Assembly: GCA_037619625.1 (NCBI GenBank)
Contig: JASJMK010000017.1
Location: 7,327 to 71,326 of the forward strand
From: Actinomycetes bacterium
GTDB taxonomy: Bacteria; Actinomycetota; Actinomycetes; S36-B12; UBA5976
Direction: 5' to 3'
Length of the DNA stretch: 64,000 nt
Shown: positions 5,372 to 42,480 of the stretch, in pieces
How positions within the stretch are numbered: position 1 is the stretch's first letter
Layout: each line of letters opens with the position of its first letter
Notes under the pieces: generated by a model
Told to the model about the DNA's origin: nothing
The model's input: only the letters and a program-made list of their open reading frames with translations
The model's database searches: none
Position numbers and translations under genes: made by a program

Positions 5372-5845
5372 ATGGCTACCGGTACACCAGCAACAACTTT
5401 GCTAACTGCTGCTGGAATTATCTACGTGGAGCACGAGTACCAACATGAAACAAGTGCTACCTCGTTTGGTTTAGAAGCTGCTGAAAAACTTGGAATTGAT
5501 CCAAGTCAAGTCTTTAAGACTCTGGTAGTAGCAGTAGATGACCACTTTGCAGTTGCGATTGTTCCAGTAAATCAACAAGTGAGCTTGAAAGCACTCTCGC
5601 GAGTCCTTGGCGCGAAAAAGGCAACTATGGCTGATCCTGAAGTTGCCGCGCGAATGACTGGCTACGTAGTCGGTGGGATAAGTCCACTTGGCCAAAAGAA
5701 GTTGCTCCCAACTGTCATCGCTGAATCAGCGCAACTACTGGGCACAGTTCTGGTTAGTGGTGGAAAGCGCGGATTTGATATCGAATTATCGCCAATTGAC
5801 TTGGCCGAACTATTGCAGGCAAAATTCGCTGACATTGCGATTTAG
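5372..5845 (+). CDS. ybaK: Cys-tRNA(Pro)/Cys-tRNA(Cys) deacylase, YbaK/EbsC family
   Basis: 157-aa ORF with YbaK-like features ([19 protein letters not shown]). Divergent from hisD with a 45-bp spacer. Confidence 0.8.
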
Positions 5846-5862: not shown

Positions 5863-8800
5863 TTAAGTTGTCAGCAATTGCGGTGCTTCTAAGCAATTAG
5901 CACCTAGCAGCGCTTTTAAGTCGCCAAACAACGAAGGTGACGGCGACACTCTAAGTTTGTCATCAGTCTTTACTGAAACAAACTTGTCAGATTGAATAAC
6001 CGTCAAGTTGACTTGCGTTGTTCCTGGATGCGCACTCAAAATTTGACGCAAGGAATCCATGACTGCAGCGTTAACTCGAGACTCTGGAATGTAAACAGTT
6101 ACTGGACCAGAGTGGGCTGCGCTGACATCAGGGATTGAGACTTCCAACGCAGCAACGCGTGGGCCTTCATCGTCTCTTTTCTCAATTCGCACCTTCATTA
6201 AAATAATTGCATCTTCATTGAGTAAGGCGGCAACTTTTGTAAAAGTGTTTGGCCACACCATTACTTCGACAACTCCCTCTAGATCTTCCAGGGAAACGAT
6301 CGCCCATCTGTCACCAGAACGCTTTGTGGTCTTAAGTTGCACGCTGCTAATTAATCCACCCAGTGTTACCACCGCACCATCGGAGGCTTCAGCTACACCT
6401 GAAATTGGCATTGACGTACTCATGGCCAACAAGTGCTCGACACCAAATAGTGGATGGTCACTTACGTAAAGGCCAAGCATGTCGCGCTCTTGCGCCAACA
6501 TGGTTTTCTTATCCCATTCCTCCAAGGATATGTTTACATCGACGCCACCAATGGCATCATCAGAATGATCTTGAGATGTGCCAAATAAATCGAACTGACC
6601 AATTGCTTCCGCTTTTTTGGTATCCAGTACTGAATCAACGGACTCCACGTGGATCGCAAATAGTCCGCGCCTAGTGTGACCTAGTGAATCGAAGGCACCA
6701 GCTTTAATCAAGGATTCGATAACTCGCTTATTGCAAACTTGAACATCGACTTTTGTTAAGAAGTCACCAAAGGATGTGAATCTACCTTTCTTTGTTCGGC
6801 TTACTTTAAGGGATTCCACGACGTTGACTCCAACATTGCGTACTGCTGCAAGTCCGAACCGGATATCAGTTGCGATCGCAGTGAAATCTACGTCAGACTC
6901 ATTTACATCTGGTGGCAAAACTTTAATACCCATGCGCCGGCATTCGTTTAAGTAAACTGCCGACTTATCTTTGTCATCTTTAACACTGGTAAGTAGCGCT
7001 GCCATATATTCCGCTGGGTAATTCGCTTTGAGATACGCGGTCCAGTATGAAACTAAGCCATAACCAGCGCTATGGGCTTTATTGAATGCGTAATCTGAGA
7101 ACGGAACTAGAGTTTCCCAAAGTCGATTGATGGCAGCTTGGGAAAAATTACGCTCTTTCATGCCAGCTTCAAAGGGCAGATATTCTTTATCTAGAATTTC
7201 TTTCTTTTTCTTACCCATGGCTCGTCGTAGCAAATCAGCTTGGCCAAGTGTGTAGCCTGCCACTTCCTGCGCAATTGCCATTACTTGTTCTTGATAGACA
7301 ATCAAGCCATATGTATCGCCCAAAATTGCAGCTAAAGGCTGTTCCAAATCGGGGTGAATTGGAACTTGGACTTTTCGTTTGTTTTTGTAATCGGCATAGT
7401 CAGTGTGTGCGTTCACACCCATCGGGCCCGGGCGATAGAGCGCAAGTACAGCCGATATGTCGCCAAACGAATCCGGGTTCATCGAACGTAGGAGCGAACG
7501 AATTGGACCACTGTCGAGTTGGAACACGCCAAGTGTGTCGCCACGGGCCAGCAATTCATAAGTTTTTAAATCATCAAGTCCAAGTTCTTCTAAGACCACT
7601 GTTTCGTCGCGATTTGATTTGATGTTTAGCAAAGTGTCATCCAGGACGGTGAGATTTCGCAGGCCGAGGAAATCCATCTTTAGTAGACCCAACGATTCGC
7701 AGGCTCCCATGTCGAATTGGGTAATGATTGCGCCATCTTGATCGCGGCGCCAAATCGGCAGGATGTCGAGTAATTCTTCTTTACACAAAATCACACCAGC
7801 TGCATGTACGCCAGGCTGACGCTTTAAACCCTCGATACCGCGCGCAGTATCAACTACGGTGCGAACGTCAGCCTCGTCGTTATAAAGTGCTCGGAACTCG
7901 CCCGCTTCGCCAAAACGATCATGGTCTGGGTCAAAAATTCCAGAAAGTGGAATGTCTTTGCCCATAACGCCAGGAGGAATGGTTTTATTAATTTTGTCAC
8001 CGAGTGCATACGGAAAGCCAAGTGCGCGAGTGGCATCCTTTACTGCTGCTTTTGCTTTAATCGAGGCGTAAGTGATGATCTGGGCTACGCGTTCTTCGCC
8101 GTATTTATGTGTGGCGTATCGAATCATTTCGCTGCGGCGACGTTCGTCAAAGTCAATGTCAATGTCGGGCATAGAAATTCGTTCTGGGTTTAGGAATCGC
8201 TCAAAAAGTAAGCCGTGCTTTATTGGGTCGAGCTCGGTGATACCCAGCGCCCAAGCGATCAACGCACCGGCTGCCGAACCTCGACCTGGACCAACGCGGA
8301 TTCCTTCCTCGCGCGCGTGCCGACATAAGTCCGCAACCACAAGAAAGTATCCAGGGAATCCCATTTGCTCAACAACGGCAAGTTCGAATGCTGCGCGCTC
8401 TAAATGTTCTGCTGGAACCACATCAGAGTTGAAACGTCGCTGCAAGCCAAGTTGAACTTCTTTAACTAGCCAGGTGTTTTCCGTTTCCCCGCTTGGTACT
8501 GGGAATGACGGCAACAAATCCTGGCCCTCAACAAAATTTATGTTGCACCGTTCTGCAATTAATAAGGTGTTGTCGCAAGCCTCTGGCAACTCGCGCCAGA
8601 CTTCGCGCATCTCGGCAGCAGTTTTCAAATAAAAATCCTGAGCATCAAATTTAAATCGCTTGGGATCATCCATAGTGGATCGGGTGCCGATACAAAGTAA
8701 AACTTCATGCATTCGAGCATCTTCAGGGTATACATAGTGCAAATCATTGGTTGCGACTAAACCAAGATTTAAGTTCTTGGCAATTTTCAGTAAGTCTTCG

Positions 8801-9417
8801 CGATGTCGACGTTCGATTCCTAGGCCGTGATCCATTAGTTCAACAAAATAATTTTCTTTGCCTAAAATTTCGCGCATAGTTGCTGCAGTACTTAGTGCTT
8901 TGTCATAATTACCTGCCTGCAACCAGCGATTTACTTCTCCCGATGGGCAGCCCGTTGTGCCAATGATTCCAGAACCATAAGTTTGCAAAAGGTCTGCGTC
9001 AAAACGTGGTTGATAGTAAAAGCCTTCCAAACTTGCTTTGCTGGATAAGCGAAATAAGTTATGTAACCCAACATTATTTTCGGCCCATAAAGTCATGTGC
9101 GTGTAGTTGTAGCGGCCACGGCCTGCGCCATCCAGAGAAGTGTCATCAACTGCTGGTGAGCCAAAATCAAAAGGAGCCCTTAAAGCCCGGCCTTGTGGCG
9201 CGTAATAACCTTCAATACCAATGATTGGCTTAACGTTTGTGGCTTGCGCTTTTTTCCAAAATTCAAAAGCACCATATAAATTGCCATGATCCGTCATTGC
9301 AATGGCAGGCATCCCAAGCTCATCAGCTTTGGCGAACAAATTATCAAGTCGCGCAGCCCCATCCAGCATGGAGTACTCGGTGTGCACGTGAAGATGCACG
9401 AACGAGTCATTACTCAC
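5863..9417 (-). CDS. dnaE: DNA polymerase III alpha subunit (replicative DnaE1)
   Basis: 1184-aa ORF. Intact PHP N-terminus (FVHLHVHTEYSMLDGAA), a PDIDIDF palm motif, and an OB fold plus C-terminal domain. Confidence 0.96.
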   Translation of the reverse strand: MSNDSFVHLHVHTEYSMLDGAARLDNLFAKADELGMPAIAMTDHGNLYGAFEFWKKAQATNVKPIIGIEGYYAPQGRALRAPFDFGSPAVDDTSLDGAGRGRYNYTHMTLWAENNVGLHNLFRLSSKASLEGFYYQPRFDADLLQTYGSGIIGTTGCPSGEVNRWLQAGNYDKALSTAATMREILGKENYFVELMDHGLGIERRHREDLLKIAKNLNLGLVATNDLHYVYPEDARMHEVLLCIGTRSTMDDPKRFKFDAQDFYLKTAAEMREVWRELPEACDNTLLIAERCNINFVEGQDLLPSFPVPSGETENTWLVKEVQLGLQRRFNSDVVPAEHLERAAFELAVVEQMGFPGYFLVVADLCRHAREEGIRVGPGRGSAAGALIAWALGITELDPIKHGLLFERFLNPERISMPDIDIDFDERRRSEMIRYATHKYGEERVAQIITYASIKAKAAVKDATRALGFPYALGDKINKTIPPGVMGKDIPLSGIFDPDHDRFGEAGEFRALYNDEADVRTVVDTARGIEGLKRQPGVHAAGVILCKEELLDILPIWRRDQDGAIITQFDMGACESLGLLKMDFLGLRNLTVLDDTLLNIKSNRDETVVLEELGLDDLKTYELLARGDTLGVFQLDSGPIRSLLRSMNPDSFGDISAVLALYRPGPMGVNAHTDYADYKNKRKVQVPIHPDLEQPLAAILGDTYGLIVYQEQVMAIAQEVAGYTLGQADLLRRAMGKKKKEILDKEYLPFEAGMKERNFSQAAINRLWETLVPFSDYAFNKAHSAGYGLVSYWTAYLKANYPAEYMAALLTSVKDDKDKSAVYLNECRRMGIKVLPPDVNESDVDFTAIATDIRFGLAAVRNVGVNVVESLKVSRTKKGRFTSFGDFLTKVDVQVCNKRVIESLIKAGAFDSLGHTRRGLFAIHVESVDSVLDTKKAEAIGQFDLFGTSQDHSDDAIGGVDVNISLEEWDKKTMLAQERDMLGLYVSDHPLFGVEHLLAMSTSMPISGVAEASDGAVVTLGGLISSVQLKTTKRSGDRWAIVSLEDLEGVVEVMVWPNTFTKVAALLNEDAIILMKVRIEKRDDEGPRVAALEVSIPDVSAAHSGPVTVYIPESRVNAAVMDSLRQILSAHPGTTQVNLTVIQSDKFVSVKTDDKLRVSPSPSLFGDLKALLGANCLEAPQLLTT

Positions 9418-9541
9418 GGGATCAGTTCCTTATGTTTTCGGGGCAAAATGCGAGAGGAAGGACGCTCCCCTAGGTTACTCGCGCAATCAGACATTTCTGC
9501 GGGGCGTACCGATGTAACCCGAAGTTGGCCGAAAATTGCGG

Positions 9542-35686: not shown

Positions 35687-36913
35687 CTAATTGTCGGTCT
35701 CAATTAGTCGGGCAGGTTTAACGGCTGCGTTACCAAATTTCTCGGTAACTTGATCCATCGCTGCCTGCGCCTCCCGCCAGCCAGCGTCCCGCTCTGATAA
35801 CTCCAGTTGAATTGCTGATTTGCTGGTTGGAATTAGCCCAGTTGCTCGCACTCCAACGAGTCGAACTCGAGCTCGTTGCAAATTCATTGCCTCAAATAAA
35901 TTCTTACTAGTTGTATAAATTTCTGTGGCAAGGTCAGTTGATGAAATCAGTGACTTGCTGCGAGTTACTGAAGTGAAGTTAGCAAATCTAACTTTGATTG
36001 TGATGGTTCGGGCAAAGAAATGTGCATCTCGTAGTCGTTTTGCCACTTTATTACTCAAATCCAAGAACTGAGCCAGCAGTAACTCTGGGTCATCGATATC
36101 AGAATCAAAAGTGCGTTCAGCACCGATACTTTTCTCAGCTTGATTTGGTGTTACTTTGCGTGGATCACGCGCCCAAGCTAACTCGTAAAGGTGCTCAGCG
36201 GCTGCTTGACCAATTACGCGAGTCAAAGTTTTTACTGGGGTATTTGCGATGTCCGCTACCGTGACCAGTCCCAGCCGAGAAAGTTGTTCAGCTGTTTTCT
36301 CGCCAACACCCCAAAGCGCTCCGATTGGTAGCGGATGCAAGAACTCAATGACTTTGTCAGCGGGTACTACGTGTAAGCCATCTGGTTTTGCAAAGTTAGT
36401 TGCAAGTTTTGCAATGAACATTGTTGAGGCAACACCCACTGAGCAGGTAATTCCCTGTTCATCGCTTACGCGGGCTCTAATAATCTCACCAATTTGCGTA
36501 GGTGATCCCATTAGTTTCTGGGCTCCGGAAATATCCAAGAAAGCCTCATCTACAGAAAGTGGTTGAACCTGCGGAGTTATAGATTCAAAAATTGCCATTA
36601 CATTTTCTGAGATCTCAGAATACTTGCCATGATCTGGTTCAACAACTACGGCGTTTGGTGCCAAGCGAAGTGCGCGTGACATCGGCATTGCTGAGTGCAC
36701 GCCTAATTTTCGAGCTTCGTAAGTTGCTGAGAGAACTACTCCACGATTTCCGTCATAGCCAACTATTACTTGCTTGCCTGCAAGTTTGGGGTTCTCACGA
36801 ACTTCAACAGAGGCAAAGAATGCATCCATGTCTATATGCAAAATGTTGCAGTTTGTATCATCACCCTTGGGGTTACGCGCAGCACTTCCCCGATTTAATT
36901 GAGATCGACTCAT
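35687..36913 (-). CDS. dinB: DNA polymerase IV (DinB, Y-family, catalytic residues intact)
   Basis: 408-aa ORF with ILHIDMDAFFASVE and LSVDEAFLDIS (catalytic D/D/E present), a little-finger domain and a QLELS clamp-motif-like element near the C-terminus. Its ATG overlaps the dnaE2 TGA (ATGA at 36910-36913). Confidence 0.9.
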   Translation of the reverse strand: MSRSQLNRGSAARNPKGDDTNCNILHIDMDAFFASVEVRENPKLAGKQVIVGYDGNRGVVLSATYEARKLGVHSAMPMSRALRLAPNAVVVEPDHGKYSEISENVMAIFESITPQVQPLSVDEAFLDISGAQKLMGSPTQIGEIIRARVSDEQGITCSVGVASTMFIAKLATNFAKPDGLHVVPADKVIEFLHPLPIGALWGVGEKTAEQLSRLGLVTVADIANTPVKTLTRVIGQAAAEHLYELAWARDPRKVTPNQAEKSIGAERTFDSDIDDPELLLAQFLDLSNKVAKRLRDAHFFARTITIKVRFANFTSVTRSKSLISSTDLATEIYTTSKNLFEAMNLQRARVRLVGVRATGLIPTSKSAIQLELSERDAGWREAQAAMDQVTEKFGNAAVKPARLIETDN

Positions 36914-39900
36914 GGTGCCAACTTTGCGGCTGATCGCATAGCTCGAGCTATGTCATTGCCAGCAGGTCGCACATCTGCATACGGTGAGGATCTAAAGCCG
37001 CTGGCATGTTCCCAAATTTGAGTCGGCGCAACTGGATCTAACTGGACTTTTGGAGCTACGCCAATTAATTCCTGCACTGCGCGCACACCTCCAAATTTCC
37101 AATGTTGATAAACCTGCGATAATTCCCAGCACCCATTAGCCAGAATAGATACCCCGCGTGGTCCAGTTCGACGCACTGTGCCACTAACTAAAAGTAACCA
37201 AGAATGAAACAACGTGGGTGCATATTGATCCTGCGCCTCCTCGAAAAACGTAGCGTCAACTGGCCCGGTTGAATCCTCCAAAGTAACGAATGCCACACGT
37301 TTGCCGGATCGAATCGGTGGTGTCTGAGTGGCAACCTTAACCCCAGCAATTAAGACATTGGATTGTGAGCGCACTTGAAGTAAGTGACCTGCTGGCACCG
37401 CATTTAATTGAGTTAGCATTTCGCGATAGAAACTCATGATGTGAGCGCTGACGTCAATTCCAAGAACTTCAATTTCATATCTGACTCGATCTGCTAGCGA
37501 TAGTGCCGGTAAGCCAGTTGGCTCTGGAATCCAATCAATTTCTGTCATACCAAATGTGATTTGAGCTGTGGCAACTGCTCTCCCAGTTCTTTTGAGTTTG
37601 AATTGAGCACTTAACTCTGCGACGTGAAATAGCAAATCTCGTCGAGAAACTAATTGGCTATGCAGTGCATCAAAGCCACCAGCTAATACGATGCGCTCAA
37701 TAATTGGCCGCGAGGCCTTAGCGCGATAAGCAAAGTCAGCTAGTGAGCGATAAGGCGCAGCAGAAATTATGTCACTGACTTCTTGCTGACTAATGCCCTT
37801 AACTTCTGAAAGTGGAATTCGAATTCCATAACCACCATTAACTGTGCGCTCTACAACATAAGTATCACTTGAGACATTTACATCAAGTCCTAAGATTTCT
37901 ACGCCACAACTGCGAGCATCATCAGCGATTAATCGCTTTGGATACATACCTGGATCATGCGTTAAAACTCCGGCAATAAATGCTGCTGGGTGGTGCGCTT
38001 TGAACCAAGCTGACTGATATGTAGGTAGGGCAAAAGCTGCAGCGTGGGCTTTACAGAATCCAAAAGATGCAAAAGCTCGTAAAACTTCCCAAACTTGTTC
38101 AATTACCACCAGTTCATATTTCTTTTTGCGAAGTGCCGAATAAAACCATTCTCGAATTTCATCAAGTTGCTCATAGTCGCCCATACGACGACGAATTAAG
38201 TCAGCAGCCTCGAGTGAACAATCTGTCATTACTGAAAGGATTCGCATAACTTGCTCGTGGAAAACTACAACACCACTGGTCTCAGCCAGAATTGGCGCTA
38301 AGTCTTTGTGCATATAGTCAGTAGTTGCCCAGCCTTGCCGAGCTCGCAGAAACGGTGTAATCATGTCGCTTTTTACTGGTCCAGGACGAAATAGTGAAAT
38401 GTCAGTAATCAAATCACCGAAAGAAACTGGCGCGAATTTTCCAATTAGTTCGCGTTGTCCTGGTGACTCAATTTGAAAACAACCCAAAGTTTTAGTGCTT
38501 TGAATTAGTTCAAAAGTTTTGGGGTCATCGCGTGGCACTGCCTCTAAATTAATTAGCCCAGTGTGATCTGTGCCATGTGCACTTGGGCCTTCTACTTTGT
38601 GTACTTGCTTAATGGCATAAGCCAGAGCAGATTGCATTCGGACACCAAGCACATCTAGTTTGAGTAATCCCATGTGCTCAACATCATCTTTATCAAATTG
38701 GGACATTGGAAACTCTTGGGCACTTGGTTGCACTGGCGTGCGCTCTAGTAATGACAAATCAGAAAGCACTATCCCACAGGGATGTAATGAAGTATGTCGA
38801 GGTAGGCCATCTAAGCCTTCGACTAAATCTAAGAACTGATCAAGATCTCCGCGCGCAGCCCTGATGCCAATGCCACTTCGGCGCAATTCAGGTAATTCTG
38901 CCAAGGCGCTTCGGATGTGCCGAGCCCTGATGTGTGGAAAGGATTTAGCAAAAGTATTAATCTCACCTGGTGGCATACCTAGCGCAGCTCCAACATCTCG
39001 AATTGCGTGTCGAACTCGATATGTTTCGCGCATTGAAACGCATGTTGTGCGCTTATCTCCAAATCTGTCAAAAATAGCTTGGTAGATCTCAATCCGGCGA
39101 TCTGACTCTACGTCGATGTCTATGTCTGGCAACCCTGGGCGAAGTGTGGATACGAATCGTTCCATCAATAAGTTGTGCGCGATTGGATCAACGCCAGATA
39201 TTCCTAACAAATGGTTGATAAAACTTCCAGCTCCAGAGCCACGAGCTGCCACTCTGACTTTCATTTGGCGAATCATGTCAACAACTTGCGCCACAGTTAG
39301 GACGTATCCAGCTAAGCCCATTTGGGCAATGATCGCTAACTCAGAATCCAGGCGCGCTCTACTGCTGCGCTGATCATCGACTCGAGTAACTGAGTTGTCA
39401 ATTAAGTAATTAGTGAATCCAAGCTCACAACGCTCCTGCAATATGGCGTCAGCACTACGCGATTCACCCGGCAACAACTTTGCTAACTCAGGGACATAAA
39501 CCTGATTCATTCCCAAATCGGCCTTTGGATCAATTACGCATTCCAGACCCAACTCCACAGTTTGACTCAGAAGTATTCTGCTGATGTCGCGTTGATCGCC
39601 AACCATGCCTGAAATCCGTTGTGCGATAGCGTGCATGTGCGCTGTGGTTGCAAGAAATGCTTGATTTGTTGGGCCACTATTTGTTTTTGCTGACAACGCC
39701 AGCTGTCGGCGCGACGCATCGAGAACATCAGCAATACGAGAATCCTGTTGTTCGCGATATCGAACCATGTTCGTCAACACTGCAGGAACTTTATGCACAA
39801 TAGCCCACTGCAACATGCGGGCTGCAAAAGTATCGGACAAATTAGCGGCATCTGGACTTTGGCAGTGCGTAGTAATTTCTAAGTAAGTGCGAACGCCATG

Positions 39901-40410
39901 TTCTTGCCAAGTGCGCAGATGATCAAGTGCTCGATCAGGCCTGCGATTAAGAATGTTGTAGCCAATGTCCGAGCGTGGACCTAGCAAGGCAACTAGCCCA
40001 TGTTCGCCGGCTAGTTGCAATAACTCTTGTCTATTAATTTCTGGGTCTTCCCGCGAATCAAGATGAGCCCTGGAGATGATCGCGCACAATCCAGCCCAGC
40101 TTTGTTTATCGTGCGCTAATAAAGTTATGCGTGGTCGTTCTGGCTTAACCCACTTGCCACCATGAGCTGGAGTAGGTAAATAAGGTTGCGGAGTTTCGAG
40201 CGCAATGTCTACGCCAAGAATTGGGGAGATCTGCGCGCTTGCGCACGCGTGAATAAAACTAACTGCGCCCGCTACGGTATCTCGATCTGTTAATGCCAGT
40301 GCACTTTGCCCATATTCGCTGGCGCGATTCACTAAGTCTTGTGGCGTTGTTGTGCCATAACGCATCGATAATGCTGATGCCACATGAAGGTGAACAAATT
40401 CTTGCGGCAT
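36910..40410 (-). CDS. dnaE2: Error-prone DNA polymerase DnaE2 (ImuC-type Pol III alpha paralogue)
   Basis: 1166-aa ORF with a Pol IIIalpha palm/fingers (PDIDIDVES, GLLKLDVLG) and an OB fold (KRVAFVTLEDSTGPVDATFF). The PHP N-terminus is degenerate (FVHLHVASALSMRYG versus FVHLHVHTEYSMLDG in dnaE1). It sits in an SOS-box-controlled operon with dinB. Confidence 0.88.
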   Translation of the reverse strand: MPQEFVHLHVASALSMRYGTTTPQDLVNRASEYGQSALALTDRDTVAGAVSFIHACASAQISPILGVDIALETPQPYLPTPAHGGKWVKPERPRITLLAHDKQSWAGLCAIISRAHLDSREDPEINRQELLQLAGEHGLVALLGPRSDIGYNILNRRPDRALDHLRTWQEHGVRTYLEITTHCQSPDAANLSDTFAARMLQWAIVHKVPAVLTNMVRYREQQDSRIADVLDASRRQLALSAKTNSGPTNQAFLATTAHMHAIAQRISGMVGDQRDISRILLSQTVELGLECVIDPKADLGMNQVYVPELAKLLPGESRSADAILQERCELGFTNYLIDNSVTRVDDQRSSRARLDSELAIIAQMGLAGYVLTVAQVVDMIRQMKVRVAARGSGAGSFINHLLGISGVDPIAHNLLMERFVSTLRPGLPDIDIDVESDRRIEIYQAIFDRFGDKRTTCVSMRETYRVRHAIRDVGAALGMPPGEINTFAKSFPHIRARHIRSALAELPELRRSGIGIRAARGDLDQFLDLVEGLDGLPRHTSLHPCGIVLSDLSLLERTPVQPSAQEFPMSQFDKDDVEHMGLLKLDVLGVRMQSALAYAIKQVHKVEGPSAHGTDHTGLINLEAVPRDDPKTFELIQSTKTLGCFQIESPGQRELIGKFAPVSFGDLITDISLFRPGPVKSDMITPFLRARQGWATTDYMHKDLAPILAETSGVVVFHEQVMRILSVMTDCSLEAADLIRRRMGDYEQLDEIREWFYSALRKKKYELVVIEQVWEVLRAFASFGFCKAHAAAFALPTYQSAWFKAHHPAAFIAGVLTHDPGMYPKRLIADDARSCGVEILGLDVNVSSDTYVVERTVNGGYGIRIPLSEVKGISQQEVSDIISAAPYRSLADFAYRAKASRPIIERIVLAGGFDALHSQLVSRRDLLFHVAELSAQFKLKRTGRAVATAQITFGMTEIDWIPEPTGLPALSLADRVRYEIEVLGIDVSAHIMSFYREMLTQLNAVPAGHLLQVRSQSNVLIAGVKVATQTPPIRSGKRVAFVTLEDSTGPVDATFFEEAQDQYAPTLFHSWLLLVSGTVRRTGPRGVSILANGCWELSQVYQHWKFGGVRAVQELIGVAPKVQLDPVAPTQIWEHASGFRSSPYADVRPAGNDIARAMRSAAKLAP

Positions 40411-40413
40411 AAC

Positions 40414-40962
40414 TTACTTAGGAGTTGATACTGCAGGACTAGATACTGCAGGGCTAGATACTGCAGGAGTTGATACTGCAGGATTAGATACTGCAGTGCG
40501 GCGGTTAAGCGGAATAACATTATTTGGAATTACATTTTGGGCAGCAACGTTAGTTGGCAAAGTTAATTGTCGTGAGACACCAAGTTTTTCTGCAACTAAA
40601 TCAATAAATTCATGCGCATCTCTAACTAAGTCATCAGCCTCACGAGGCGTAACAGCTCCCCCAAGTCCAACTTCAGCAGCCGCACGCTTACCCGCGCCCG
40701 ATGCAAAATACTGTGCCCATTCAGTGAACTCGGGATCGACTTTACTAACTAAAGTCCACACACTGGTTGGTCTACTTCGGCTTGGCTTGGTGTGGGCTGC
40801 AAGTAAAGCTGCTGCAGCGCGCAAGGCTGCCAGGTGTGCGGCAACATACTTTTCGCCCGCACGAGATGCAATGATCGCGGTATCTAAACTTCGCAATGCG
40901 CCAGCTAATAAATCAATGCTGGCTACAGTTGCTTGGATTTCGTGTGTTGGTTGTGAGCTCAT
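40414..40962 (-). CDS. SAV_6107-type HEPN-like protein with a disordered repeat tail (function unknown)
   Basis: 182-aa ORF with a GGGAGAA SD. The Ala-rich helical core (AAHLAALRAAAALLA...SVWTLVSKVDPEFTEWAQYFASGAGKRAAAE...READDLVRDAHEFIDLV) matches my recollection of the actinobacterial SAV_6107 HEPN family. No Rx4-6H motif. The tail carries QLTLPT plus five PAVS[ST] repeats. The stop lies 3 nt before the dnaE2 ATG. Confidence 0.5.
   Translation of the reverse strand: MSSQPTHEIQATVASIDLLAGALRSLDTAIIASRAGEKYVAAHLAALRAAAALLAAHTKPSRSRPTSVWTLVSKVDPEFTEWAQYFASGAGKRAAAEVGLGGAVTPREADDLVRDAHEFIDLVAEKLGVSRQLTLPTNVAAQNVIPNNVIPLNRRTAVSNPAVSTPAVSSPAVSSPAVSTPK
40421..40497. repeat. Five copies of a 15-bp coding tandem repeat (each contains CTGCAG)
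   Basis: GATACTGCAGG recurs at 40427, 40442, 40457, 40472 and 40487. It encodes (PAVS[ST]) five times at the C-terminus of the HEPN-like protein. Confidence 0.9.
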
Positions 40963-40989: not shown

Positions 40990-41268
40990 TTAATCAAGTA
41001 AGTGGTATACAAACCAGCGTTCATCACTGGTTGCAATGTCATAAATTCCAAAATTGTTTTTCGAATTTTGCGAAGTCGCTTCAACTCGCCAAACTTGCCA
41101 TTCCCGTGCTTGCCGCGTACGCCACCACGGAGCTGACTCCAGCCAAGTGAACAAAATCGTGAGCACTAAGTAACTGTGGCCACGCCAACTAAAGGACTTG
41201 GGTAAGCCGCTGGCATTAGTGCGCACTTGAGCCAAGGATCTGGTGCTAACACCGTAATTTCGGGACAT
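40990..41268 (-). CDS. Small Trp-rich protein, DUF6504-like (function unknown), first gene of the dnaE2 cassette
   Basis: 92 aa counted from ATG 41268 (AAGG SD 6 nt upstream): MSRNYGV...FSWRGHSYLVLTILFTWLESAPWWRTRQAREWQVWRVEA...ERWFVYHLLD. The ORF-track start at 41319 would place the promoter and LexA box inside the CDS. The DUF6504 assignment is from memory of the W/WRV pattern. Confidence 0.5.
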   Translation of the reverse strand: MSRNYGVSTRSLAQVRTNASGLPKSFSWRGHSYLVLTILFTWLESAPWWRTRQAREWQVWRVEATSQNSKNNFGIYDIATSDERWFVYHLLD

Positions 41269-41278
41269 AATGAGCCTT

Positions 41279-41294
41279 TCGAACATTTGTTCGA
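41279..41294. promoter_or_regulatory. LexA (SOS) box, perfect actinobacterial consensus
   Basis: TCGAACATTTGTTCGA equals TCGAAC-N4-GTTCGA. The arms extend to 7 bp (TTCGAAC/GTTCGAA, 41278-41295). It lies 2 nt downstream of the -10 hexamer and 10 nt upstream of the ATG at 41268. It is the only such site I found in the window. Confidence 0.85.
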
Positions 41295-41296
41295 AC

Positions 41297-41319
41297 AGCA
41301 TAAGGCTAGCGCCCGACAA
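41297..41319 (-). promoter_or_regulatory. Candidate RecA-NDp / PafBC-type DNA-damage promoter
   Basis: The minus strand reads TTGTCGGGC-GCTAGCCT-TATGCT. The published motif is tTGTCRgtg-N8-TAnnnT. The core TTGTCG, the 8-nt spacer and the TAnnnT hexamer all fit. Two of the three weakly conserved 'gtg' bases differ. Confidence 0.55.
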
Positions 41320-41370
41320 GTTTCCAATCTTTGGAAAAGTGGGCTAAAAATCCCCTACTTAGTGGGAAAA

Positions 41371-42480
41371 CTAAAGTTTGTGAATCTTGGCAGCCTGGCT
41401 GATGCGCTGGCTTTGGGCAGTATTTAACGCCTGATCTGGCAATCGGTCATAGCCTTCTCCGAATGGGTCTGGCACATCAGTTTTAATACCAGACATAGTT
41501 TCTAGAACTGCCAAACCGCAATATGGAACATAAATCGGTGAGTAGCCACCTTCGTGCGTCATCATCAATTTACCCTCACAAACTTCATCAGCCACATTAA
41601 GTAATAACTCAGTTAGTTGTCGGTAACCAGCGGAGGTCACCAACATGCGGCCAAGCGGGTCAGCTGCGCTGGCGTCGAAACCAGATGCCACCACAATCAC
41701 ATCAGGTAAGAAATTACGAATTGCAGGTAAGACGACTTTTTCTAAAGCTTCAACATATGCGCCATTACCGGAACCGGCAGGTAGCGGGATATTAATTACG
41801 GAACCAGTTGCTGCTACCCCACCAATGTCATCAATGAGGCCACTGTCAGCTGGATATAGATTGTCTTGGTGAATTGAGATACATAAAACATTTGGGTCCG
41901 AATAAAAAATTTCTTGCGTACCATTACCGTGATGAACGTCCCAGTCAACAACAACTACGCGCTGTACTCCCAATGTTTCTCTGACGTTTTGAATGGCAAT
42001 GGCTGCATTTGCGAAAATACAATAACCCATTCCAGTTTCTGGCCGAGCATGATGTCCAGGTGGACGCACTAATGCATATGCATTATTTACTGTGCCATTA
42101 ACTACTGCACGCAGCGCTTCAATTGCCCCACCAGCAGCAAGTGCTGCGATGTCATAGCCACCATTGCCAAATGGTGATTCGCCGTCTCCGGCATCGCCGC
42201 CCTTAGGTAGCAAGCTTTCAGCTTTGATTCGAGCAAGGTACTCTTTAGTGTGCACGCGCAAAATATCAGCTTCAGTTGCTGTAATTGCAGGAATCTTAAC
42301 TAGTTGCTGGCCAAGGCCAGAAACTTCAATTAGCGAAGCAAAGCGAGTTTTAGTCTCACTGCTTTCGTAGTGTTCATACGGCTGCACTTTGGTGCTTGCA
42401 AATGCATGACCAGCCGCAGTTCCAGTATCGTGCCAGCCATAAAGTTCATTCCAAACAAAACCAGTTTTCATGACGCTCAC
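41371..42480 (-). CDS. Histone-deacetylase-family amidohydrolase (acetylpolyamine amidohydrolase-like)
   Basis: 369-aa ORF with the HDAC/arginase-fold motifs RPPGHHA, VVVDWDVHHGNGTQ, GFDASAADPLG and EGGY. Confidence 0.8.
   Translation of the reverse strand: MSVMKTGFVWNELYGWHDTGTAAGHAFASTKVQPYEHYESSETKTRFASLIEVSGLGQQLVKIPAITATEADILRVHTKEYLARIKAESLLPKGGDAGDGESPFGNGGYDIAALAAGGAIEALRAVVNGTVNNAYALVRPPGHHARPETGMGYCIFANAAIAIQNVRETLGVQRVVVVDWDVHHGNGTQEIFYSDPNVLCISIHQDNLYPADSGLIDDIGGVAATGSVINIPLPAGSGNGAYVEALEKVVLPAIRNFLPDVIVVASGFDASAADPLGRMLVTSAGYRQLTELLLNVADEVCEGKLMMTHEGGYSPIYVPYCGLAVLETMSGIKTDVPDPFGEGYDRLPDQALNTAQSQRISQAAKIHKL

Follow-up and report, generated by a model that had tools for sequence, protein, structure and literature searches.

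Genes carrying both an SOS box and the RecA-independent damage motif (RecA-NDp) are known from mycobacteria (PMC8223512, PMC3381160). In Mycobacterium tuberculosis, promoters that contain both are found at ruvC, at Rv2100 and other genes of the 13E12 family, and at Rv2719c, and dnaB has an SOS-box motif together with partially RecA-dependent induction (PMC3381160). Here we describe a region of this kind on the minus strand of a 64,000-nucleotide (nt) stretch of an Actinomycetes bacterium (assembly GCA_037619625.1, contig JASJMK010000017.1, positions 7,327 to 71,326), to which we refer as the window. Positions 41332-41266 of the window probably form a single compact promoter, operator and ribosome-binding region for a DNA-damage-inducible operon, DUF6504-HEPN_SAV_6107-DnaE2-DinB2, on which PafBC-type activation would be combined with LexA repression. 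Like the M. tuberculosis dual promoters, where induction is partly RecA-dependent, the region holds a PafBC/RecA-NDp-type motif together with a LexA box. It differs in its lineage (freshwater Nanopelagicales, with a guanine-plus-cytosine (GC) content of 47-49% in the window), in the operon that it precedes, in a gap of only 2 nt between the -10 hexamer and the LexA box, and in its very short leader. A sequence-only reading of this DNA had proposed dual control, with activation by a PafBC-like regulator and repression by LexA; comparative sequence evidence supports the pair of sites, but the novelty implied was overstated, as both the concept and the stacking in a single region are already documented in mycobacteria (PMC3381160, PMC8682763, PMC8223512).

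Two further systems are close to this operon. The mycobacterial DnaE2/ImuA'B mutasome is co-regulated by the SOS response and PafBC (PMC8682763), and there, as we propose here, error-prone polymerase genes are under LexA repression and PafBC activation. The layouts are different: the imuA' gene of M. tuberculosis has its PafBC site 166 nt 5' of its LexA site and uses separate transcription starts, and recA has two promoters, P1 and P2 (PMC8682763), which leads to an OR-like, clastogen-specific logic, whereas the single promoter of the window, on which the operator covers the predicted start, would lead one to expect a LexA veto. The mutasome also has ImuA' and ImuB, and the window operon is without both. 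In Streptomyces, dnaE2-dinB2 is an SOS-induced operon (PMC3273824, PMC9380542), and the window shares with it the 4-bp overlap between a Pol III alpha gene and an active-type DinB2 gene, the LexA box and an adjoining DUF3040/SCO2097-dcw region. LexA sites of S. venezuelae lie directly upstream of and inside dnaE2, with no PafBC motif reported (PMC9380542). Unlike this, control in the window and in 11 distant orthologues is placed upstream of two small leading genes, DUF6504 and HEPN_SAV_6107.

Promoter and operator elements in the window

On the minus strand, positions 41325 to 41266 read ggaaacTTGTCGGGC-GCTAGCCT-TATGCT-gt-TCGAACAAATGTTCGA-aAGGctcatt-ATG, and re-reading the window letters on that strand showed the earlier transcription of the site to be exact. 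Taken from 41332, the same region can be divided as AAAGATTGGAAAC-T-TGTCGG-GCGCTAGCCT-TATGCT-GT-TCGAACAAATGTTCGA-AAGG-CTCATT-ATG. The element TGTCGG (41313-41318), with its GTC core at 41317-41315, fits the '-26 element' of PafBC promoters (PMC8635444); the TTGTCGGGC that the sequence-only reading had singled out corresponds to 41319-41311. It is followed by the N10 spacer GCGCTAGCCT (41312-41303) and, exactly 10 nt 3' of TGTCGG, by the -10 hexamer TATGCT (41297-41302), which has the form TAnnnT. TGTCGG-N10-TATGCT is thus an exact fit, oriented toward the gene, to the consensus tGTCgg(N10)tA(N3)T obtained for PafBC by chromatin immunoprecipitation sequencing, in which the -26 element occupies -23 to -28, PafB reads the strictly conserved GTC and a -35 is absent (PMC8635444). 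What the site has in common with those sigma-adaptation promoters is the exact motif, the conserved GTC, the orientation and the lack of a -35 at 16-18 nt; it departs from them in a -35-like hexamer 19-20 nt from the -10 and, in most Nanopelagicales copies, in a T as the fifth base.

The LexA operator TCGAACAAATGTTCGA (TCGAAC-N4-GTTCGA, 41279-41294) begins 2 nt after the -10 hexamer, as the coordinates (41297 to 41294) confirm. It had been described as perfect, and it is indeed the single zero-mismatch match to TCGAAC-N4-GTTCGA in the 64-kb window, the five other matches having two mismatches each. The palindrome extends to 18 bp, TTCGAAC-AAAT-GTTCGAA, at 41295-41278, and the box ends 10 nt before the ATG. 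The Shine-Dalgarno sequence AAGG (41275-41278), 6 nt before the ATG start codon (41268-41266), shares its first base with the end of the extended palindrome; both were found where the sequence-only reading had placed them. Upstream of the PafBC-type element lies a block AAAGA(T/C)TGGAAAC (41320-41332), which is invariant in 18 aligned sequences except for its one Y position and holds a weak -35-like hexamer, TTGGAA (41327-41322), 19 nt from the -10. All of these elements are on the minus strand.

As RNA, the palindrome has a predicted fold of -11.9 kcal/mol (z = -3.1). We do not propose an RNA leader role for it, since the predicted transcription start falls inside the palindrome. The Rfam search gave only sub-threshold chance matches, all inside the upstream gene. 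The pattern GTCNG-N10-TANNNT has only three matches on both strands of the window, two of them at correctly oriented promoter positions. The second of these is the one further oriented intergenic PafBC-type match of the window, aTGTCTG-ATTGCGCGAG-TAACCT (9472-9493, minus strand), which lies about 55 nt 5' of the dnaE1 GTG start and has no LexA box.

Conservation in close and distant relatives

A scan of a genome collection with a DUF6504 alignment gave 18 loci, 17 of them from metagenome-assembled genomes (MAGs) labelled Candidatus Nanopelagicales, Actinomycetota or similar; the eighteenth, L019, is a high-GC MAG and was handled with the distant orthologues. The DUF6504 proteins of these loci are 57%-94% identical to that of the window, and one further contig encodes an identical HEPN protein. 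We aligned the promoter regions of 18 sequences and counted invariant columns. From AAAGA to AGGCT, 54/59 columns are invariant, the corresponding figures being 4/18 for third positions in the first 20 codons, 1/5 for the bases between Shine-Dalgarno sequence and ATG, and 2/19 for the alignable columns further upstream. Variation within the block is confined to the Y in AAAGAYTGG, bases 5 and 7 of TGTC(G/T)G(G/C/T)C and two spacer bases. No variation is seen in the GTC, TATGCT, the 18-bp palindrome or the AGG, in the 10-nt spacing or in the 2-nt gap, and AGGCT as a whole is invariant. The promoter design is real and strongly conserved. Two different upstream neighbours adjoin the block in near-identical operons (window and L016 on one side, L001 and L002 on the other), and the boundary of conservation is therefore functional and not a reflection of recent shared ancestry.

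The invariant AAAGAYTGGAAAC block and the N10 spacer suggest constraint beyond the two known motifs. This conservation, which takes in the 13 nt on the 5' side of the PafBC motif as well as a spacer that neither known motif needs, would be accounted for if the TGTC element or AAAGAyTGGAAAC were bound by a different or additional, lineage-specific factor, such as a SiwR-like WYL protein or an alternative sigma factor. Candidates are plentiful, with about five WYL proteins per actinobacterial genome on average (PMC6789036), and further WYL activators of the damage response are on record (PMC10693628). We nevertheless regard such a regulator as quite improbable. The geometry, with GTC at about -26, the 10-nt spacing and TAnnnT, is exactly that of PafBC sigma adaptation, and the upstream block is Nanopelagicales-specific and not common to the high-GC orthologues, whereas TGTC(N)G-N10-TAnnnT is common to both groups.

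For the distant orthologues, the DUF6504 protein of L019 served as query for homologues, and exact-protein look-up added ten more loci, giving 11. These were chosen by protein similarity, so the set is unbiased as to motifs. Their operon order is the same (DUF6504, HEPN_SAV_6107, DnaE2, an optional methyltransferase, DinB, DUF3040). A LexA box with 0-1 mismatch is present in 11/11, and in 10/11 the pattern TGTC(N)(G/C)-N10-TAnnnT ends 7-9 nt before it, often as the full mycobacterial-type motif TGTCGGTGG. The claim of a RecA-NDp/PafBC-type motif thus gains support from the exact fit to the consensus together with a GTC kept in 18/18 close and 10/11 distant orthologues. Spacers and flanks are unrelated between the distant loci, so the common architecture reflects selection. 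The distances differ: the gap from -10 to LexA box is 2 nt in the window and 7-9 nt in the distant orthologues, and the distance from LexA box to ATG is 74-202 nt in most distant genomes, 18 nt in L019 and 10 nt in the window. Because of this difference in box-to-ATG distance, the Nanopelagicales promoter appears to be a compacted form of an ancestral promoter.

The long leaders of the high-GC orthologues (L020-L026, L147-L149) carry a recurring CCTCGACCCC(T/C)G element that has no equivalent in the window and might represent a leader RNA or an additional operator. In L020, L022-L026, L147 and L148, a tRNA_edit gene (YbaK-like, PF04073) usually lies directly upstream of the DUF6504 operon, mostly divergent from it; the tRNA_edit gene of the window (5372-5845) adjoins dnaE1 instead.

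The stacking of the two sites was also sought in metagenomes, with the pattern TGTCNG-N10-TANNNT-N{1,10}-TCGAACNBNNGTTCGA, in which B excludes the window's own AAAT spacer. There were at least 120 matches. Gap lengths among the 120 listed are sharply non-uniform, with 9 matches at 1 nt, one each at 2 and 3 nt, 4 at 4 nt, none at 5 nt, 2 at 6 nt, 11 at 7 nt, 31 at 8 nt, 41 at 9 nt and 20 at 10 nt, so that gaps of 8-9 nt make up 72/120. Among the same listed matches, a DUF6504 open reading frame follows in 67/120 and a HEPN_SAV_6107 frame in several more. In the other classes listed, the gap is mostly 1 or 4 nt at DnaB and at the DUF222-HNH (13E12-type) endonucleases, with two HNH loci at 9-10 nt, and 7-9 nt at the LysM proteins; one direct DnaE2 and one NrdR complete the list. 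The DUF222-HNH, LysM and DnaB classes correspond to the 13E12 family, Rv2719c and dnaB of M. tuberculosis. As the stacking recurs at DUF6504 operons and at DnaB, DUF222-HNH and LysM genes, it is evidently a widespread actinobacterial design and not a peculiarity of the window. A hexamer TTGAC(R), 1-4 nt upstream of TGTC and 19-20 nt from the -10, is found in 56/67 of the listed DUF6504-linked promoters; it also occurs in the listed LysM promoters, and most of the HNH and DnaB promoters lack it. In a Rhodoluna locus (L036, 3372-4521), lexA is divergent from a LysM gene with a stacked PafBC motif and LexA box at a 9-nt gap, an arrangement that mirrors lexA/Rv2719c of M. tuberculosis.

So strong a conservation could also mean that the stretch is coding. 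The frame is open from TTG 41319, and if translation began there or at the upstream in-frame ATGs, the 'motifs' would be codons for MSGASLMLFEQMFERLIM. Public gene calls do place the start at TTG 41319 or at an ATG, either the one within TATGCT or the one within the LexA-box spacer, and the resulting apparent N-terminus MLFEQMFERL (MLFEQMFERLVM...) is present in public protein clusters P0001-P0047. Conservation, though, goes on upstream of any start codon. The variable sites in the supposed extension include a second codon position (GGC/GCC/GTC among the 18 sequences), and the 'codon' before ATG 41268 varies freely (I, T, D, V), the invariant protein columns beginning at the Met of that ATG. 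The Pfam DUF6504 match begins after this Met. The high-GC orthologues start at a homologous M-T-R-R-Y (the shared N-terminus being M-[ST]-R-[NR]-Y), and no reading frame connects this start with their LexA boxes, which lie 18-202 nt upstream, outside a coding context. On the variable codon positions, the Pfam position and the high-GC starts we rejected the coding explanation, which we find scarcely credible. ATG 41268 is supported as the start, and the sequence-only reading was right that the 109-amino-acid open reading frame called from 41319 is mis-started: conservation, Pfam position and high-GC N-termini all favour ATG 41268. The operator is so conserved that its translation looks like a conserved peptide. 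This is a recurring annotation error: many public protein records have an N-terminal extension that is translated regulatory DNA.

Proposed mechanism and candidate regulators

In the mechanism that we propose, the housekeeping sigma-A RNA polymerase would use the -10 hexamer TATGCT. There would be no usable -35, and a PafBC-type WYL activator bound at TGTCGG near -26 would supply the missing -35 function ('sigma adaptation'). If TATGCT occupies -12 to -7, transcription would start at an A at about 41291-41290 and TGTCGG would lie at -28 to -23. This predicted start falls within the LexA box, in agreement with the earlier proposal that the operator covers it, and a LexA dimer on the 16-18 bp palindrome, from about -4 to +12, would block open-complex formation or promoter escape. 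Full expression would then need both LexA cleavage, in response to the RecA/single-stranded DNA signal, and activation by PafBC, which is itself activated by single-stranded DNA (PMC11804915). On a single promoter with the operator over its start, LexA would act as a veto or ceiling and PafBC would drive induction. Consistent with such a model, mutation of the SOS box of M. tuberculosis Rv2100 raised basal and induced expression, and damage inducibility persisted (PMC3381160). Translation from ATG 41268 would proceed from a leader of about 22 nt with the AAGG Shine-Dalgarno sequence.

The two halves of this mechanism differ in their support. That the box is a LexA operator is strongly supported, because it is a perfect 18-bp palindrome, is invariant in 18/18 sequences, is present in 11/11 distant orthologues and precedes an operon that is SOS-controlled in Streptomyces. 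The identification of the upstream element as a PafBC-type promoter is supported by sequence evidence, and several observations weigh against it or against the model as a whole. In the one exception among the 11 distant orthologues, Vallicoccus soli (L021), GGGCGG stands in place of TGTCGG. Most Nanopelagicales orthologues have TGTCTG, in which a T takes the place of the R of the older consensus, and the 'gtg' tail is absent. In view of the title of Dawson et al., a strict AND gate is not guaranteed. Pfam/NCBIfam annotation of the window genes found no lexA, recA or WYL/PafBC gene in the 64-kb window, and of these it is the absence of lexA and WYL genes that tells against the model. In S. venezuelae, conservation of the PafBC motif known from M. 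smegmatis was reported to be lacking (PMC9380542). A single match to the loose pattern TTGTCR-N11-TANNNT occurs in the 64-kb window, with 1.02 expected in shuffles; we dropped window-level enrichment as support, and because the loose pattern alone is at chance level, the PafBC half of the observation needs the comparative data. Finally, a -35-like hexamer stands 19-20 nt from the -10, as TTGACR in the high-GC orthologues and, at the homologous position, as TTGGAA (41327-41322 in the window) or CTGGAA in Nanopelagicales, and this weighs against a PafBC promoter because PafBC promoters are described as having no -35.

The last three points could be read together as a promoter controlled by LexA only, in which sigma-A would use a weak -35 (TGGAAA or TTGGAA), a spacer of 18-19 nt and the -10 TATGCT, and TGTCGG would have no activator function in this lineage. 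Such a promoter would explain why the hexamer is conserved, and as a good TTGACR in the high-GC orthologues, and LexA alone explains dnaE2-dinB2 in Streptomyces (PMC9380542). The scan for sigma-70 promoters, however, which uses spacers of 16-18 nt, reported no -35/-10 pair here; the -35-like hexamer stands at 19-20 nt. Sigma-70-type promoters use a spacer of 16-18 nt, which the spacing here exceeds, and in a plain sigma-70 promoter one would not expect the spacer sequence to stay conserved. Moreover, TGTC and its exact 10-nt distance are kept from the 47%-GC Nanopelagicales to the high-GC orthologues while the surrounding bases have fully diverged, and TGTCGG-N10-TAnnnT stacked with a LexA box recurs at the unrelated DnaB, DUF222-HNH and LysM genes among the metagenome matches listed. 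On balance we consider control by LexA only unlikely, and combined PafBC-type activation and LexA repression remains the reading that we prefer. Current PafBC models do not explain the TTGACR hexamer 19-20 nt from the -10.

A more ambitious version of the dual-control model is possible but doubtful. It would have the operon be an uncharacterised, phylum-wide translesion/mutagenesis module with an ancestral single-promoter gate, made up of the PafBC -26 element and -10, a LexA operator over the start and an extra TTGACR 19-20 nt from the -10. Compaction in the genome-streamlined Nanopelagicales would have brought this gate down to about 55 bp, the gap shrinking from 8-9 to 2 nt and the leader from 75-200 to about 22 nt, and both signals would be strictly required.

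As to the regulators themselves, PafBC is present in almost every actinobacterial species (PMC8635444). Literature searches returned nothing relevant on LexA in Nanopelagicales and nothing on PafBC specific to this group. The lexA gene of L036 was considered as proof of LexA in Nanopelagicales and rejected, its protein being 94% identical to one of Rhodoluna sp.

The operon and its significance

The intergenic region that holds the promoter is 102 nt long and is flanked by a histone-deacetylase-like gene (41371-42480, PF00850) and the DUF6504 gene. The upstream gene is closed by a terminator-like hairpin on the minus strand (41351-41368), a stem-loop TTCCCACTAAGTAGGGGA followed by TTTTT, which may shield the operon promoter from read-through. 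On the contig that has the identical HEPN protein and an identical promoter block (L001), the upstream neighbour ends like those of L002 and L005, unlike the deacetylase gene of the window, and the break between L001 and the window (upstream of 41340) coincides exactly with the point where the conserved block ends.

Four tightly packed minus-strand genes follow. The first encodes the 92-amino-acid DUF6504 protein (40990-41268 with the corrected start; PF20114, E=1.5e-12), the second a HEPN_SAV_6107 family protein of 182 amino acids (40414-40962; PF18726, E=1.3e-32), the third a second Pol III alpha paralogue of 1166 amino acids, identified with Pfam/NCBIfam and called 'DnaE2' in Streptomyces nomenclature (36910-40410), and the fourth DinB/Pol IV of the DinB2 type (35687-36913; NF003015, 398 bits vs a cutoff of 367). 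The replicative paralogue dnaE1 is found elsewhere in the window (5863-9417). The start of dinB and the stop of dnaE2 share 4 bp (ATGA, 36913-36910), and the DinB catalytic motifs DMDAFFASVE and SVDEAFLD are intact, indicating an enzyme of the catalytically active type. Gene content, the ATGA overlap and the intact DinB motifs therefore point to a dnaE2-dinB2 operon as in Streptomyces (PMC3273824), and the two marks of that operon type, the 4-bp overlap and an SOS box in the operon promoter, are both present. We rejected an ImuA'-ImuB-DnaE2 mutasome cassette because the Y-family gene keeps its catalytic motifs and its Pol IV score exceeds the NCBIfam cutoff; the small leading genes, being DUF6504 and HEPN_SAV_6107, are likewise not ImuA.

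Little has been written on these two leading genes: the literature search on DUF6504 or SAV_6107 returned a single table entry only. The structure model of the DUF6504 protein is confident and all-beta, with a predicted local distance difference test (pLDDT) score of 86.2, and has no PDB match at E <= 0.001. Between their conserved N- and C-terminal halves, DUF6504 homologues (P0013-P0042) differ in how many 10-residue tandem repeats, such as GARDMNTPYS or GACDTDTPNS, they carry, and the window copy is without any. The C-terminus of the HEPN_SAV_6107 protein (40414-40500) is a low-complexity repeat, AVSNPAVSTPAVSSPAVSSPAVSTPK.

The novelty of these findings is modest and lies in the lineage, in the phylum-wide link to a polymerase operon led by DUF6504 and HEPN_SAV_6107, in the extreme compaction and in the recurrent annotation artefact. 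The promoter design appears to be shared across the phylum for this operon, and the small, well-defined region is a suitable test case for how a sigma-adaptation activator and a start-site repressor work on one promoter. The LexA-plus-PafBC circuit has so far been worked out only in mycobacteria, and our analysis suggests that abundant, uncultured freshwater Actinobacteria with streamlined genomes use it as well.

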